Both the position numbers and the translations under genes were made by a program. 64,000 bases of DNA from Geothrix sp. (GTDB lineage Bacteria > Acidobacteriota > Holophagae > Holophagales > Holophagaceae): NCBI GenBank assembly GCA_036504495.1, contig DASXVC010000014.1:2366-66365 (forward strand), read 5' to 3'. Shown here piece after piece: positions 49,058 to 56,036 of this stretch. The notes under the pieces were generated by a model. The model was not told the DNA's origin. It saw nothing but the letters and a program-made list of their open reading frames with translations, and did no database searches. How positions within the stretch are numbered: the first letter of the stretch is position 1; every line of letters begins with the position of its first letter.

Positions 49058-49166
49058 GGTCATTTCCTTTCCAGTTCGCAAGGATGGTGACACAACCGGG
49101 CGGGACATGACGGGCATCATGGGCACCCCGGAGTATCCTATGGGCCCTGATGATAGGAGACCCGCC

Positions 49167-50360
49167 GTGAATCCTGGCTACCTGGCCCACCTCAACCGTG
49201 AGATCGAGCTGCTGAAGGAAGCGGGGCTCTACAAGACGGAGCGGGTCATCACCTCGCCCCAGCAGCCCCAGATGCAGGCGAACGGTAAGGACGTGGTGTG
49301 CCTCTGCGCCAACAACTACCTCGGTCTGGCCAACCATCCGGAGATCATCCAGGCCGCCAAGTCGGTGATGGACGACCATGGCTTCGGCATGGCCTCGGTG
49401 CGCTTCATCTGCGGCACCCAGGACATCCACCGGGAGCTGGAGCTGAAACTCGCCGCCTTCCTGGGCTTCGAGGACACCCAGCTCTATTCCTCGTGCTTCG
49501 ATGCCAATGGCGCCATCTTCGAAGGCCTGCTCGGCGAGGAGGACGCGATCATCAGTGACGCGCTGAACCACGCCTCCATCATCGACGGCATCCGCCTCTG
49601 CAAGGCCCAGCGCTTCCGCTACGCCAACTCCGACATGGCCGACCTGGAAGCCCAGCTGAAGGCCGCGGATGCCGCGGGCGCCCGGTTCAAGCTGGTGGTC
49701 ACGGATGGCGTCTTCAGCATGGACGGCTACATCGCGAAGCTTGCTGAGATCTGCGATCTGGCTGAAAAGCACGGCGCCATGGTCATGGTGGATGACAGCC
49801 ACGCCGTGGGTTTCATGGGGGTGAATGGCCGTGGCACGCATGAGCACTGTGGCGTCATGGGGCGTGTGGACTTCATGACGGGGACCTTCGGCAAGGCCCT
49901 GGGCGGCGCCTCCGGCGGCTACATCGCCGGCAAGCAGGTGGCCATCGACTGGCTGCGCCAGAAGGCCCGCCCCTACCTGTTCTCGAATTCCGTGGCCCCG
50001 GCCATCGTGGCCGCCACCCTGAAGGTGCTCGACCTCCTGAAAAACAGCCAGGGCCTCATCAAGCAGGTGCATGAGAACGCCCGCTATTTTCGCGCCGGCA
50101 TGGAGAAGGCTGGCTTCAAGCTGCTGCCCGGCGAGCACCCCATCGTGCCCGTGATGCTGTACGAGGCGCCGCTGGCCCAGGAATTCGCCAAGCGCCTGCT
50201 GGACGAGGGCGTCTACGTCATCGGGTTCTTCTTCCCCGTGGTGCCCAAGGGCCAGGCGCGCATCCGCACCCAGATGAGCGCTGCGCATACCCGCGAGGAC
50301 CTGGACCACGCCATCAAGGCCTTCACCAAGGTGGGCCGCGAGCTGGGTGTGATCAGCTAG
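49167..50360 (+). CDS. kbl: Glycine C-acetyltransferase (2-amino-3-ketobutyrate CoA ligase)
   Basis: [52 protein letters not shown]; AGGAGA RBS before GTG. Confidence 0.96.
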
Positions 50361-50549
50361 GGTCTGTTTTCAAAGTGGGGTGTGGCCGCGCAAGGGGCGC
50401 CGCCCCTTGCCCTCCGGGACGTCGCCCAGCCGCACCCCTGGCTACGTTGACGGCCTCGAACGATGTCCCGCATCGCCCTTCGGCCGCCGTCTTGCCATGA
50501 GCGCGGCTGGTCGCCGTCGCGGCTCGCATCCACTTTGAAAACAGACCCT
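50359..50549. mobile_element. Putative MITE, 191 bp, 20-bp perfect terminal inverted repeats
   Basis: AGGGTCTGTTTTCAAAGTGG ... CCACTTTGAAAACAGACCCT; structured interior; overlaps the kbl stop codon (CTAG). Confidence 0.75.
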
Positions 50550-50558
50550 GGCCCTTTC

Positions 50559-50843
50559 CTACAGCACGATGTACCGGTAGGTTCCCGGGTCCTGTTCCTT
50601 CAGCAGCAGCTGGATGGTCCAGCGCCGATCGGGGTAGCGCTCGTACATCGTGGCGCTCATGACGGATTCCGACAGCCAAGGGCGGATGTCCTCGTACCGC
50701 TCGAACACCGGGGGCTCCCAGCCATCGCTTCCGGTGCCCCGGGCCGCCGATCCAGGCTTGAGGTAGTCCAGCAGTCGCGCCAGCGAGGTTTCGGGATCCT
50801 GCATCATCCGCTCCATGCTTCCGGGTGGGGCCTGAGTCTGCAT
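50559..50843 (-). CDS. Small hypothetical protein
   Basis: ORF directly after the PilZ gene on the same strand; start uncertain. Confidence 0.55.
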   Translation of the reverse strand: MQTQAPPGSMERMMQDPETSLARLLDYLKPGSAARGTGSDGWEPPVFERYEDIRPWLSESVMSATMYERYPDRRWTIQLLLKEQDPGTYRYIVL

Positions 50844-50845
50844 GC

Positions 50846-51241
50846 TCAGGCGGGATCGTTCGAAAGCGCCCCATCCGCAGGCTCGCCAGAGGGGCCGGTG
50901 GGTTCGGAGGCATGGGGGGACAGCGATTCGATGAGCGTCCGGAGGGAGGTCTCGCTGCCCGGGTCGAGGGCCTTGGAAAAGGTGATGGCCATGCCCCGCG
51001 CGTCAGACCTCACCACGGTTCCCCGGGCCACGATCCGCCGCTTGGCCTCGCCATCCTGTAGCAGGATGGCCACACCACACGGGCTACCAAGGGGCAGGCG
51101 CTCGCGGCCGCCCACCAGGATGCCCCCCATGCTGAGGTCGATGGCCGTGGGGAAGGCGATGATCCGGTCCTCTGCCACCAGTTTCACCTGGTAGGAGATG
51201 GGAATGCGGCGGAATCGCCGTGTTTCGGGATGTGCGCTCAT
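50846..51241 (-). CDS. PilZ domain protein
   Basis: RRFRR (RxxxR) and DLSMGG motifs, GTVVR...GMAITF. Confidence 0.88.
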   Translation of the reverse strand: MSAHPETRRFRRIPISYQVKLVAEDRIIAFPTAIDLSMGGILVGGRERLPLGSPCGVAILLQDGEAKRRIVARGTVVRSDARGMAITFSKALDPGSETSLRTLIESLSPHASEPTGPSGEPADGALSNDPA

Positions 51242-51289
51242 GAGTGAAATCCGGTTCCCGGCATGATAACGCACGGGAATGGCCCGGGA

Positions 51290-53002
51290 TCACAGGTCCT
51301 CCGTCTCTCCATAGCTCTTGTCGTGCACGCCCGTGACGGCCCGGCCGGAGGGATCGGCCATCCCCGCGAACGAGGCATCCCAGCGCAGGGCGGTTTCCGT
51401 GCTGCACGCGACGCTGCGTTCGAAGGGCACACAGTTCACGGCGGTGGCGCTCGGGAAGTGGTGCTCGAAGATCTGGCGGTAGAAGTAGGCCTCCTTGGTT
51501 TCGGGAGTCTTGACGGGGAACCGCTCCGTGGCGCCCCGCATCATGCCGTCGCTGATCTCCCGTTCGGCCGTGGCCTTGAGGGCGTCGATCCAGGCGTAGC
51601 CCACGCCATCGGAAAACTGCTCCTTCTGCCGCCAGAGCACGGCGTCCGGGATGAGGCTCTCGAAGGCCTTCCGCAGGGGGTATTTTTCGATGGGCCTGGG
51701 CCGTGGGGCGTTCCGGGGCAGCTTCACCGCCGGATCCATGCGCATGGCCACATCGAGGAAGTCCCGGTCCAGGAAGGGCACCCGGGCCTCCACGCCCCAG
51801 GCCGCGCTGGACTTGTTGGCGCGGGCGCAGTCGTAGAGGTGCAGCTTCTGGAGCTTGCGGACGGTCTCGGCGTGCAGCTCAGGGCCGTCCGGCGCCTTGT
51901 GGAAGTAGAGGTAGCCGCCGAAGATCTCGTCAGCGCCCTCGCCCGACAGCACCATCTTGATGCCCATGGCCCGGATCTTCCGCATCATGAGGTACATGGG
52001 CGCCGACGCCCGGATCGTCGTGATGTCGAAGGTCTCCAGGTGGTAGATCACATCCGAAAGAGCGTCCAGGCCCTCCTGCACGGTGAAGTGGAGCTCATGG
52101 TGGATGGCGCCGATGTGCTCGGCCACCAGCCTTGCGGGAGCCAGATCCGGCGCTCCCTCCAGCCCCACGGCGAAGCTGTGGATTCGCGGCCACCAGGCGG
52201 GCGTCGTCCCGCCCTCCTCCACGCGGCCGTCCCGGTACTGGGCAGCGATGGCCGCAATCAGCGAGGAATCCACGCCCCCGGAGATCAGGACGCCGTAGGG
52301 CACATCGCACATGAGCTGGCGCCGCACCGCGGTTTCGAGCGCCGCCCGGAGCGCCTCGGGATCGTAGGGCTCATCCGGGACATGGCCGGGCCGGGCCCAT
52401 TCAGGCTCGTAATAGCGCTGGAAACCCTTGTCCGCCTCGTGTCCCAGGTAGTAATGTCCTGGCGGGAACTCGCGGATCCGGTCGCAGTGGCCTACCAGGG
52501 CCTTCATCTCCGAAGCGGCGTAGAGCCGGTCCTCCCGGTCCCAGCCCAGGTAGAGCGGGACGACGCCGATGGGGTCCCGGGCGATGAGGAAGGTCTCGCG
52601 CTTGGGGTCGTAGAGCACGAAGGCGAAGATGCCGTTCATGCGGTTGAGGAAGTCCCGGGGCGGGAGTTCGTCGTAGAGGTAGAGGATCACCTCGCAGTCC
52701 GAGAGGGTCTGGAAGTCGTGGGCTTCCCGCAGGCCATGCCGGAGGTCCCGGTGGTTGTAGATCTCCCCGTTGACCGCGAGGACGGTGCCCTTGAGGGTGT
52801 CGACGAGGGGCTGGGCGCCGTGCTCCACATCCACGATGGACAGGCGCTCGTGGACGAGGATGGCCCGGTCATCGCTGTAGATGCCGCTCCAGTCAGGACC
52901 CCGGTGGCGGATCTTCCGGGCCATGGCCAGGGCCTGGCGCCGGAGCTCCGCCGGGTTCGAGCGGGAGGGATCGATGTCGAGGATGGTGAGGATGCCGCAC
53001 AT
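51290..53002 (-). CDS. asnB: Asparagine synthetase B (glutamine-hydrolysing)
   Basis: MCGI N-terminus, HRGPDW, NGEIYN, SGGVDSS, SGEGADEIFGGY, RQKEQFSDG. Confidence 0.97.
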   Translation of the reverse strand: MCGILTILDIDPSRSNPAELRRQALAMARKIRHRGPDWSGIYSDDRAILVHERLSIVDVEHGAQPLVDTLKGTVLAVNGEIYNHRDLRHGLREAHDFQTLSDCEVILYLYDELPPRDFLNRMNGIFAFVLYDPKRETFLIARDPIGVVPLYLGWDREDRLYAASEMKALVGHCDRIREFPPGHYYLGHEADKGFQRYYEPEWARPGHVPDEPYDPEALRAALETAVRRQLMCDVPYGVLISGGVDSSLIAAIAAQYRDGRVEEGGTTPAWWPRIHSFAVGLEGAPDLAPARLVAEHIGAIHHELHFTVQEGLDALSDVIYHLETFDITTIRASAPMYLMMRKIRAMGIKMVLSGEGADEIFGGYLYFHKAPDGPELHAETVRKLQKLHLYDCARANKSSAAWGVEARVPFLDRDFLDVAMRMDPAVKLPRNAPRPRPIEKYPLRKAFESLIPDAVLWRQKEQFSDGVGYAWIDALKATAEREISDGMMRGATERFPVKTPETKEAYFYRQIFEHHFPSATAVNCVPFERSVACSTETALRWDASFAGMADPSGRAVTGVHDKSYGETEDL

Positions 53003-53012
53003 GGCTTGCTCC

Positions 53013-53050
53013 AAAAGAAAAAACCCCGATCCGCTTTCGCGAATCGGGGT
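53013..53050 (-). terminator. Attenuator terminator in the asnB 5' leader
   Basis: Minus strand ACCCCGATTCGC-GAAA-GCGGATCGGGGT then TTTTTCTTTT, directly before the asnB RBS. Confidence 0.88.
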
Positions 53051-53069
53051 GGTCCGGGAATTCAGGTGT

Positions 53070-53159
53070 CTAGGTGAGACCCTCTCCGGCCCACGCGCGA
53101 TTCGCGCGAGGGAGCCGATTATTGGAATTGCGGTTGGGCCGCAGAGAGGGATTGGTCAT
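53070..53159 (-). CDS. Putative asnB leader peptide (29 aa, MTNPSLRPNRNSNNRLPRANRAWAGEGLT)
   Basis: Hand translation; 6 Asn codons, 4 of them in codons 9-14; lies between the promoter and the terminator. Confidence 0.8.
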   Translation of the reverse strand: MTNPSLRPNRNSNNRLPRANRAWAGEGLT

Positions 53160-53174
53160 GTAACGCCTGGAAGA

Positions 53175-53204
53175 ACCTTATCGGCTGGCTTCGCAAAACG
53201 TCAA
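53175..53204 (-). promoter_or_regulatory. Putative sigma70 promoter of the asnB leader
   Basis: TTGACG-N18-TAAGGT on the minus strand. Confidence 0.55.
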
Positions 53205-53266
53205 GGTTAGAAGCAGAAGTTGGCTGGTCTTGCGCTTGATGATGAAATGGTGCGGTTGGAGGCGCC

Positions 53267-54298
53267 ATGAAAGCCCTGTTGAAGACCAAGCGCGAGGAAG
53301 GCATCTGGATGGGTGAGGCGCCCATGCCGGAAGTGGGCCCGAACGACGTGCTCATCCGGGTCCACAAGAGCGCCATCTGCGGCACCGACGTCCACATCTA
53401 CAACTGGGATGAGTGGGCCCAGAAGACCATCCCCGTGCCCATGGTGGTGGGCCATGAGTACTTCGGCGTCATCGAGAAAGTGGGGGCCGAGGTCGAGGGC
53501 TACCAGCCCGGCGACCGGGTGAGCGGCGAGGGCCACATCACCTGCGGCCACTGCCGGAACTGCCGGGCGGGCAAGCGCCACCTCTGCCGAAACACCGTGG
53601 GTGTGGGCGTGAACCGTACGGGGTCCTTCGCGGAGTACCTGTCCATCCCCGCCTTCAACGTCTTCAAGGTGCCCGACAACATCCCGGACGAGGTGGCCTC
53701 CATCTTCGACCCCTACGGCAATGCCGCCCACACGGCCCTCAGCTTCGACATGGTGGGCGAGGATGTGCTGATCACGGGCGCGGGCCCCATCGGCATCATG
53801 GCCGTGGCCATCGCCAAGCACGTGGGCGCCCGGCACGTGGTCATCACGGACGTGAACGAGTACCGGCTGGATCTGGCCCGGAAGATGGGTGCCACCGTGG
53901 CCGTGAATCCCACGAAGAAGAGCCTCCCCGACGTGATGAAGGACCTGGGTATGACCGAAGGCTTCGATGTGGGCCTGGAGATGAGCGGCAACCGCAACGC
54001 CTTTGAATCCATGCTGGAAGCCATGCACCATGGCGGCCGCGTGGCCCTGCTGGGCATCCTCCCCGGCGACTGCGCCATCGACTGGAGCCAGGTGATCTTC
54101 AAGGGCCTGGTGCTGAAGGGGATCTACGGCCGGGAAATGTTCGAGACCTGGTACAAGATGGCCGCCATGGTCCAGAGTGGGCTCGACATCACCCCCGTGA
54201 TCACCCACCACTACAGCATCGACGACTTCCAGAAGGGATTCGATGCGATGCGGAGCGGGCAGAGCGGGAAGGTGATCCTGGATTGGGGCGTCAGCTAG
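53267..54298 (+). CDS. tdh: L-threonine 3-dehydrogenase
   Basis: [22 protein letters not shown]...[18 protein letters not shown]. Confidence 0.97.
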
Positions 54299-54319
54299 CT
54301 TCTTGCAGAGAGGCACCTG

Positions 54320-54370
54320 CAAAATGCGGCCCATGGCCGCATTTTGTTTGCTGCGCACGCAGTGCGCAGC
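54320..54370. terminator. Double hairpin between convergent genes
   Basis: CAAAATGCGGCC-CAT-GGCCGCATTTTG then GCTGCGCAC-GCA-GTGCGCAGC. Confidence 0.65.
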
Positions 54371-54393
54371 TTGCCACAAAGCTCATTGGAACC

Positions 54394-55017
54394 TCAACGA
54401 AGGGGCTGCGGCTGGGGGACGGGCGGGAAGGGGCCGTCGGTCCAGGAAGCGCCGTCCTTGATGAGGATGTCGCCGGCGAGCCCCTCGCCACCGGGCAGGC
54501 CGTCGGTGCCGAGGCAGACCAGGTAATACCCGTCGAACTTGGTGTTGAACTTTTGTTTGACCGGCCCGCGCTTGACCTGGACCTCCTCGACGGGCCGCGC
54601 GACGTAGGCGCGGTAGAGGAAGGGATGGCCCCAGGGCGCTTCGGGCACCTGTTCCAGGTATTCGGGGACCAGGCTCTGCAGGGACCCGGGGTATTCGCCG
54701 GTCTTGGCCCGGTAGCGGATCAGGGCATCCATGATGCGTTTGAGGGCGGACCGGACCTGCTTCTGGCGGTCGGCCAGATCCCGGTTCACGAAGGCCTCGA
54801 TGAGAAAGAGATCCCGCTTGGCCTGCTGGGCGGCATCCGTGTCCGGGTAGCGGTCCACCAGCTGCTTCATCATGGCCTTAGCCTCGAGGCTCCGGCCCTC
54901 CAGGTTCATTTTCCGGGCTTCCTCGTAGAGGTTCCCGGGCAGCCTGGGGTCCTCGGAGCTGCATCCGGCCAGGAGCGTTAGAAGGGCCAGGGCGGGGGCG
55001 AAAGACGTGCGGCGCAT
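54394..55017 (-). CDS. Lipoprotein with TPR-like helix pair and GspG-like C-terminal domain
   Basis: LAGC lipobox; LVDRYPDT; ALIRY....GEYP..L..L, PWG.PF.Y, LGTDGLPGGEGLAGDI as in T2SS protein G. Confidence 0.7.
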   Translation of the reverse strand: MRRTSFAPALALLTLLAGCSSEDPRLPGNLYEEARKMNLEGRSLEAKAMMKQLVDRYPDTDAAQQAKRDLFLIEAFVNRDLADRQKQVRSALKRIMDALIRYRAKTGEYPGSLQSLVPEYLEQVPEAPWGHPFLYRAYVARPVEEVQVKRGPVKQKFNTKFDGYYLVCLGTDGLPGGEGLAGDILIKDGASWTDGPFPPVPQPQPLR

Positions 55018-55072
55018 GGCATGAACCTTAGCAGAGGCGCGGGACGGTAGGATGGAAGAAAGAGGAGGGCAC

Positions 55073-55726
55073 ATGACCGACAGGCCGATGCTGGTGGGCA
55101 TCGTGGGGGGCTCCGGAAGCGGGAAGACCTCGGTGGCCGCCGAGCTGGTGAAGCGCCTCAAACGACGCAGCGTGGCCACGCTCCTGCTGGACATGGACGC
55201 CTACTACGCGCCGCTGGAAGTGGTGAAGGGGCGGTTCGGGGGGCGGCCTGTGAACTGGGACCATCCGCACGCCTTCGACCTGGAGCTCATGGCGTCCCAT
55301 CTGTCGGCCCTGCACCGCGGGGAGAGCATCCGGAAGCCGGCCTACGACTTCACCCTGTCTGATCGCACCGGCTGGGAGGAGCCCGTACCGCCGGGCCAGG
55401 TGGTGATTCTCGAGGGGCTGCTGCTGTTCGCCCTCCAGGAACTCCGGGACCAGCTGGATACCAAGATCTTCGTGGACACGGACGCGGACATCCGCATCCT
55501 CCGGCGCATCCGGCGGGACACGCGCGAGCGGGGGCGCAGCCTCGAGAGCGTCATGGACCAGTACGAGCAGAGCGTCCGCCCCATGCACCTGGAGTTCGTG
55601 GAACCCAGCAAGCGCTGGGCCGACCTCATCGTGCCCACGGGCGTGGAGAACCGCACGGCCCTGGACGTCATCACCCACCACATCTGCAGCCGCGTGCTTG
55701 ATCAGGGAGAACCCCAGCGTGTTTGA
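55073..55726 (+). CDS. udk: Uridine kinase
   Basis: GIVGGSGSGKT, DAYY, NWDHPHAFD, ILEG, RRIRRD..ERGR, VEPSKRWAD. Confidence 0.95.
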   Translation: MTDRPMLVGIVGGSGSGKTSVAAELVKRLKRRSVATLLLDMDAYYAPLEVVKGRFGGRPVNWDHPHAFDLELMASHLSALHRGESIRKPAYDFTLSDRTGWEEPVPPGQVVILEGLLLFALQELRDQLDTKIFVDTDADIRILRRIRRDTRERGRSLESVMDQYEQSVRPMHLEFVEPSKRWADLIVPTGVENRTALDVITHHICSRVLDQGEPQRV

Positions 55727-56036
55727 GAACGGCATCCACCTCTCCGCGGAAACCTATCGGGACCTGGACAGCTCCGTACAGCGTCTCGACGTCCGCGAGG
55801 CCTGGGAATACGACCTGGCGCATATCCCCGGAGCCATCCTCATCCCCCTGGGCCAGCTGGCGGACCGGGTGGCCGAACTGGATCCCTCCCGCCCCGTGGC
55901 GGCCTACTGCCACCACGGCACCCGCAGCCTCTATGCCCTGCGGTTCCTCCAGGGGGTGGGGTTCAAGGACCTGGCCCACCTCGCCGGTGGCATCGACGCC
56001 TACAGCCGCCTGGACCCCTCTGTGCCGAGGTACTGA
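55719..56036 (+). CDS. Rhodanese-like domain protein
   Basis: DVRE.WEY..AHIPG, YCHHG.RS, LAGGIDAY...DPSVPRY. Confidence 0.9.
   Translation: MFENGIHLSAETYRDLDSSVQRLDVREAWEYDLAHIPGAILIPLGQLADRVAELDPSRPVAAYCHHGTRSLYALRFLQGVGFKDLAHLAGGIDAYSRLDPSVPRY

Follow-up and report, generated by a model that had tools for sequence, protein, structure and literature searches.

A predicted asparagine-codon attenuator upstream of asnB in Geothrix sp. and related Holophagaceae

Results

The asparagine synthetase gene asnB of Geothrix sp. is preceded by a short Asn-rich leader ORF, a protector hairpin, an antiterminator, and an intrinsic terminator, an arrangement that very probably acts as a ribosome-mediated attenuator and is predicted from its sequence to allow read-through into asnB when Asn-tRNA(Asn) is scarce. 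The parts of this arrangement, their conservation among relatives, the complementarity of the RNA strands, and the agreement between the leader codons and the pathway of the downstream gene are directly observed. The elements lie on the minus strand at 53013-53204 of the window (the whole stretch of DNA analysed, 64,000 nucleotides), between tdh and asnB, as determined by reading of the sequence, the ORF list, and a terminator scan, and are given here together with the neighbouring genes.

53267..54298, plus strand: tdh, L-threonine 3-dehydrogenase, divergent (NF003808, 612 bits, cut-off 380)
53199..53204, minus strand: predicted -35 hexamer, TTGACG; a TTG-type hexamer is conserved among relatives
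53175..53180, minus strand: predicted -10 hexamer, TAAGGT, 18 nt after TTGACG and 15 nt 5' of the leader ATG
53070..53159, minus strand: leader ORF, 29 codons, MTNPSLRPNRNSNNRLPRANRAWAGEGLT
53118..53135, minus strand: predicted control codons N9-R-N11-S-N13-N14, from Asn conservation in 69 main-type leaders
53120-53118, minus strand: N14, the invariant control codon
53090..53112, minus strand: protector (1:2) hairpin, CCC-CGCGCG / CGCGCG-U-GGG, from folds; extendable to 53117-53087
53086..53105, minus strand: antiterminator 5' strand (segment 2), from folds and conserved pairing; begins 12 nt past the last control codon
53063..53085, minus strand: variable inner hairpin around the leader stop codon, from folds; enclosed by the antiterminator
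53039..53057, minus strand: antiterminator 3' strand (segment 3), from folds and pairing; overlaps the terminator 5' arm
53023..53050, minus strand: intrinsic terminator hairpin (3:4), 12 pairs with a GAAA loop, 8 G-C pairs and one U-G
53013..53022, minus strand: U tract, 10 nt, U-rich, directly after the terminator stem
53009..53012, minus strand: Shine-Dalgarno-like GGAG of asnB, from the sequence; present by eye in most aligned leaders
51290..53002, minus strand: asnB, glutamine-hydrolysing asparagine synthetase B, the predicted controlled gene, with its ATG at 53002

Organisation of the leader

This attenuator was proposed in a preliminary description of the DNA, the main elements of which lie exactly where it had placed them. 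These include the 29-codon ORF with six Asn codons (five AAT and one AAC) clustered as N-R-N-S-N-N, and the 12-bp GAAA-loop hairpin and U tract just 5' of the asnB ribosome-binding site, with the identity of the downstream gene confirmed by matches over the cut-offs to NF006949 (824 bits, cut-off 499) and TIGR01536 (434 bits, cut-off 267). The remark that AAT is unusual relative to AAC agrees with codon usage in 885 long ORFs of the Geothrix sp. genome, where 2.2% of codons are for Asn and AAT accounts for 17% of these. From this usage, the probability of at least 6 Asn among 29 codons is 3e-5, with 4 of 27,775 short ATG ORFs in the genome holding at least five Asn at a share of at least 15%. 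The ribosome-binding site of the leader is weak, consisting of AGG only, and the leader peptide matches no NCBIfam model.

As tdh is divergent from asnB, transcription of the leader must start in the intergenic region. The promoter proposed there, TTGACG-N18-TAAGGT, is present and conserved, with a TTG-type hexamer and (T/C)AnnnT at 16-19 nt spacing found in 46 of 49 same-genus leaders and 60 of 75 family leaders, although a consensus promoter scan made no call for this pair of hexamers (0 called). The -10 hexamer varies (TAAGGT in 27, TATCAT in 4, TATGAT in 4, TAAAGT in 4, TATGGT in 3, and others) with TA---T kept throughout, and a start site here would leave a leader 5' UTR of about 8-9 nt. 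The asnB gene itself lies between two threonine-degradation genes on the plus strand, these being tdh and a kbl-like PLP enzyme gene assigned by eye (49130-50357).

Conservation among relatives

In the family examined, which is of the Holophagaceae type, asnB was found in 93 of 133 genomes. Upstream DNA was taken for 88 of the 93 loci, five whose match lacked the 5' end of the gene being left out, and one of the 88 had no recognisable start, leaving 87 loci. At 75 of the 87, in eight genera, asnB has an Asn-clustered leader ORF upstream, a count that shows conservation and not 75 separate trials, as kin are not independent. Two sequence types occur, with 69 leaders of a main type ending in RA(D/N)RAW... 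and six of a second type ending in PPGWS(W/R). Twelve loci have no leader, one being cut by a contig end and 11 having full upstream DNA.

Leaders were chosen by their C-terminal motif and not by Asn content. All 69 main-type leaders carry Asn four codons before the RA(D/N)RAW motif (57 AAT, 12 AAC), hold 2-5 Asn before the motif (some relatives having only two control Asn codons), and stop at a fixed codon (47 TAG, 22 TAA). A lack of conservation of the Asn codons had been named beforehand as refuting the proposal; instead, Asn is kept with synonymous change while neighbouring codons vary, with AAT making up 157 of 265 control codons (59%) across the leaders compared with 17% of the Asn codons of the genome. 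Of the six Asn codons counted in the preliminary description, only N9, N11, N13, and N14 behave as control codons. N3 is rarely kept, and 43 of 69 leaders have Asp in place of N20, whose codon is part of the antiterminator strand; both were therefore rejected, and the control codons are taken to be N9-N14.

Conservation at the nucleotide level is strongest in the helices, and this, together with the weak Shine-Dalgarno sequence of the leader and a UGG in segment 2, would suit an RNA switch that is not translated, one whose AAY triplets or hairpins serve to bind a protein, a tRNA (in the manner of a T-box), or a ligand, with the ORF being incidental. Such a switch is highly improbable given that the AAY triplets share the frame of an ATG, the start codon in 71 of 75 leaders, with the other two frames interrupted by stops in 64 and 50 of the 75, that the stop codon exchanges between TAG and TAA, and that paralogous leaders swap AAY for TTY/TAY/TGG, CCN, or CAG according to the gene downstream. 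A search of Rfam with positions 50000-56000 of the window at E <= 5 gave three sub-threshold matches, none of them to a leader family, and no T-box or riboswitch. A match to NsiR1 (24 bits, gathering cut-off 39) covers the terminator only and was set aside.

Consistent with a translated leader that senses asparagine, a scan of a genome collection (one genome per species), using a pattern built from the paired RNA segments only and leaving the control codons out, returned 78 matches, with Asn at the control codon in 76 and an asnB start downstream in 66. Judging from record titles, the matches are mostly from Geothrix and other Holophagaceae, together with six Gemmatimonadota records (L105, L134, L139, L146, L168, L170) in which a near-identical attenuator precedes a Holophagaceae-like asnB, possibly because gene and switch were transferred together. 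Of the two exceptions without Asn, one is a Rhodococcus match (L140) that has no asnB start behind it either and was taken as likely chance, and the other is a leader upstream of a chorismate mutase/pheA-like gene. Named, isolated Geothrix species are among the carriers, again by record titles, making reporter, Term-seq, and Ribo-seq work feasible.

At the asnB locus of a complete same-genus genome (L101, genome G043), leader and terminator are cleanly missing and the promoter-like TTGACG remains, with the asnB ATG positioned about where the leader ATG would be, an arrangement resembling a deregulating deletion of natural origin. From the phylum's other families, 20 loci matching asnB models were fetched, several of which are distant asnB-like genes; in two of the 20 no start was found, two were cut by contig ends, and 14 had no Asn-rich ORF. 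The remaining two (L183, L188), each from a different family, have an Asn-rich leader of their own upstream of asnB, with a terminator-like hairpin. Inspection by eye of the second leader type (L064, L067, L070, L072, L076, L077) reveals a -10-like AATACT/GATACT 6 nt 5' of the ATG, which suggests a leaderless transcript.

RNA secondary structure and ribosome position

The three helices of the main-type leader remain paired throughout the 69 leaders, with 99.4% of alignment cells paired in the protector, 95.8% in the antiterminator (99.5% in its outer 8 bp), and 97.9% in the terminator. Conserved and covarying stems had been anticipated; at 96-99% pairing the stems are indeed conserved, but little of their variation is true covariation. 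Most changes are one-sided, and with a double-sided change in only one pair per structure the support from covariation is modest. One variable antiterminator pair is G-U in 35 leaders, A-U in 25, and G-C in 9, and is never broken. The second leader type forms a different 9-bp antiterminator, paired in 54 of 54 cells across all six leaders. In 602 of 828 comparisons, native halves of the inner hairpin gave a more stable fold than cross-genus chimeras, with the test failing in two of seven genera against chimeras and in three of seven against shuffles. At least six U are present in the 8 nt after the terminator stem in 66 of 75 leaders.

In the window, the 9-nt complementarity on which the antiterminator had been proposed is exact (CGCGAATCG at 53106-53098 with CGATTCGCG at 53046-53038), although the antiterminator proper is longer, pairing 53105-53086 with 53057-53039. 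The long-range helix CCCUCUC/GAGAGGG, put forward as a competitor, is present in the window's own minimum free energy fold, but the consensus fold lacks it and its 5' arm falls within the variable beginning of the leader, the conserved competitor being instead the local hairpin at 53112-53090. Computed energies in the window are -20.3 kcal/mol for the protector (with its outer helix), -33.3 kcal/mol for the antiterminator, and -23.4 kcal/mol for the terminator, and the leader fold has a z of -4.6, with 0 of 200 shuffles as stable.

The effect of ribosome position was modelled by masking 9-12 nt past the A site and disallowing pairs that span the ribosome. Under these conditions, the probability that the antiterminator forms is 0.95-0.99 when the A site is on the last Asn codon or up to five codons before it, and the antiterminator is lost 2-4 codons past the last Asn, a sharp loss that arises partly by construction, as masking removes the strand. 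In a looser model that allows pairs across the ribosome, re-formation of the antiterminator is possible while the ribosome occupies the stop codon. At equilibrium, the terminator of the full transcript wins at every ribosome position (mean probability 0.93-0.97), so the switch must be kinetic, and we infer that its basis is the order of synthesis together with refolding of the protector behind the ribosome.

Dominance of the terminator at equilibrium would also fit a terminator that merely dampens asnB constitutively, or a vestigial element, neither of which involves switching, as would the cleanly missing leader of G043 and the ten more loci without one. This is the least probable of the explanations weighed here, as a constitutive dampener would require neither a conserved Asn codon nor a fixed stop nor a conserved antiterminator strand, and the unit has been kept at 75 loci, occurs in a second phylum, and stands before two synthetase genes that are unrelated to each other.

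For the attenuator, the following sequence of events is proposed. RNA polymerase would start about 8-9 nt 5' of the leader ATG and pause at the protector hairpin (53112-53090). When asparagine is plentiful, the ribosome would pass N9-N14 and cover segment 2 during synthesis of segments 3 and 4, with the protector then refolding behind the ribosome, the terminator forming, and an RNA of roughly 150 nt being released. When asparagine is scarce, the ribosome would wait on N9-N14, covering CCC and some of the CGC in the protector 5' arm and leaving free segment 2, which starts 12 nt past N14; segment 2 would then capture the terminator 5' arm before the 3' arm emerges, and asnB would be transcribed. 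Promoter use, translation of the leader, pausing, and kinetics are in this scheme what the architecture would predict, as is the response to asparagine. Eight public RNA runs had shares of 0.04-0.07, and the four examined held only low-depth contigs of relatives, less than 95% alike.

Leaders of the same type upstream of other genes

A covariance model built from the 69 main-type leaders was searched in the Geothrix sp. genome and the family, with 40 of the listed non-training matches fetched along with 3 from the Geothrix sp. genome. Fourteen downstream proteins were profile-scanned and the rest were assigned by eye from their N-termini. Among these matches, the codons on the one scaffold track the pathway of the downstream gene, which argues more strongly than anything else that the Asn codons function as codons and serve to sense asparagine.

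An Asn leader lies before an archaeal-AsnA-like gene in 11 of the 14 family genomes that have this gene, one of the other three being cut by a contig end. The 414-residue product, found in 14 of 133 family genomes and 0 of 61 same-genus genomes (L208-L211, L213-L217, L219, L247-L260), is unrelated to AsnB; its best NCBIfam match, PRK06462, is below cut-off, its best PDB matches are 1nnh and 3p8t, and no Pfam match was obtained for the two copies scanned. Two genomes (G122, G124) have asnB without a leader and carry the Asn leader before the AsnA-like gene instead.

In Geothrix sp. itself, the scaffold recurs with aromatic codons as the leader MTPRLHTYYWFPHTDRAWHGEGPA before class I DAHP synthase (E 1e-12; L204, G000:C92:21929-22077, minus), with a Tyr-Tyr-Trp-Phe (YYWF) leader before DAHP synthase conserved in four relatives' loci (L222, L223, L225, L229), and as the leader MTLSRRFFPFSFRTSGARVGGV with a terminator before pheA, encoding prephenate dehydratase (E 0.004; L205, G000:C67:22269-22409, minus). 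The Phe leader of the pheA type has the codons FFPFSF, and similar leaders are found at L232, L234, L235, L239-L242, and L246, whilst Phe/Tyr leaders precede class II DAHP synthase in relatives. A Pro-rich ORF and terminator lie before proB (E 0.08; L206, G000:C20:56-196, plus), and Pro-containing leaders with terminators precede proB or proC in relatives (L230, L236, L238, L243-L245). These are candidate proline attenuators, and are the weaker cases because GC-rich DNA commonly contains Pro codons and the scores against the model are low. Additionally, in one genome only (G118, L221:105-250), the leader MRSSSRQQQQNPRPPANREGTREGRG, with QQQQ, precedes an ammonium transporter and is a candidate glutamine-codon nitrogen sensor.

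On balance, we lean towards a modular attenuator family in Holophagaceae, in which one duplicated RNA scaffold has been retuned by swapping its control codons alone (Asn, Phe/Tyr/Trp, Pro, Gln). If this is the case, the ribosome would read amide-nitrogen status through Asn and Gln codons, and the paralogues would form a natural codon-swap series bearing on the long-standing question of whether changed control codons are by themselves enough to give an attenuator another specificity.

In two further matches (L220, L224), the scaffold has a shorter tail and 2-3 Asn codons, and the gene downstream encodes a PEP-carboxykinase-like protein (Atlas score 0.96), which has no Pfam or NCBIfam match and may provide a link to the supply of oxaloacetate and aspartate. 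At L158/L201 (a Thermoanaerobaculia record) and in two relatives (L261, L262), the scaffold lies before a chorismate mutase/pheA-like gene and has one conserved Phe codon (RRFSR) at the position of the cluster.

Comparison with known systems

The Asn leader resembles trpL, hisL, pheL, thrL, leuL, and ilvL in having a short upstream ORF with codons for the pathway product. As the preliminary description had recognised from the layout of trp/his/thr-type attenuators, the leader ORF, protector (anti-antiterminator), antiterminator, and intrinsic terminator follow in the same order as in classical attenuators, and, as in these, one synonymous codon is favoured. Every sequence-testable feature of trp/his/leu-type attenuators is present except a clean equilibrium switch. 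Unlike in classical attenuators, the control amino acid is Asn, the hosts are Holophagaceae (Acidobacteriota) and Gemmatimonadota, and one scaffold is reused for several amino acids within the same genomes. The attenuation mechanism itself is textbook knowledge, and it is this shared scaffold with swapped control codons that is most worth pursuing.

Asn T-box riboswitches of Firmicutes respond to whether tRNA(Asn) is charged and regulate a terminator upstream of asparagine genes, with the T-box binding uncharged tRNA directly and not being translated. The Holophagaceae leader would likewise sense tRNA(Asn) charging and act on a terminator, but keeps an in-frame ORF and has no T-box match. Among earlier accounts of attenuation, Lopatovskaya 2010 and Turnbough 2019 reportedly do not list Asn.

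The classical mechanism of leader-peptide transcription attenuation, and the Shewanella leuA leader, are described in PMC1183508 and PMC2659441 respectively, and according to a 2010 survey (PMC2965389) almost no predicted attenuator in Acidobacteriota had a function. Full-text literature searches, which covered titles and abstract starts with most subscription papers outside their scope, returned no Asn leader attenuator, and the literature searched held no description of Asn or Gln specificities for classical attenuation. Asparagine has 0 mentions in the main text of PMC2965389, PMC2659441, PMC1183508, PMC4833913, and PMC8346122, the supplements of which may list predictions. If correct, the present reading would make asparagine one more amino acid that classical attenuation senses, and would bring the mechanism to Acidobacteriota. 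For the Pro paralogues, the proline-codon leaders of Salmonella mgtCBR/mgtA (PMC3641672, PMC8346122) provide a relevant precedent, with Pro as a non-classical control codon, although these leaders control Mg2+ transport and virulence genes and not the biosynthesis of the encoded amino acid.

Charging of tRNA(Asn)

AsnRS, which is required if Asn codons are to report free asparagine, is present in all 76 high-quality family genomes at E <= 1e-40 and scores over the cut-off in 112 of 133, with one confirmed at 508 bits. In the Geothrix sp. assembly, which is 83% complete, no AsnRS scored over the cut-off, and the asnS locus of two close relatives maps to the gap between its contigs C70 and C26. 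The bacterial asnA model gave no match in this assembly, and one tRNA-Asn(GTT) was found. GlnRS occurs in 5 of 5 relatives checked, and AspRS carries the motif RNLGSLVFLDLRD, presumably that of the discriminating type. Asn-tRNA(Asn) is likely made by direct charging, given AsnRS in the family genomes and GlnRS in the relatives. The idea that the lineage has no AsnRS, with the codons reporting a GatCAB route, was dropped on account of AsnRS in relatives, the position of asnS in the contig gap, and GlnRS in all five.

The genome does contain gatB, and a translated leader could in principle control the terminator in response to a different signal, such as the speed of the ribosome, nitrogen status through amidation of Asp-tRNA(Asn), or arrest by the RA(D/N)RAW peptide. 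The near-invariance of RA(D/N)RAW would fit the last of these, and the leaders with only 2-3 Asn before the PEP-carboxykinase-like gene, and one pheA-like leader with a single Phe codon at the cluster position, would fit a signal other than the encoded amino acid. Conservation of RA(D/N)RAW extends to third codon positions (GCG in 67 of 69 and GCG in 66 of 69), a pattern that an RNA helix would produce, and the motif recurs in aromatic leaders, both of which argue against peptide arrest. The amidation route is opposed by the presence of AsnRS and of GlnRS in relatives and by the AspRS motif, and any signal other than asparagine by codon identity following the pathway, making a non-Asn signal improbable compared with sensing of asparagine through its codons.

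Two types of AsnRS are present in the family, one scoring about 430-445 bits and the other about 615-630 bits. Genomes in which asnB has no leader commonly carry the higher-scoring type, but two genomes have both this type and the leader.
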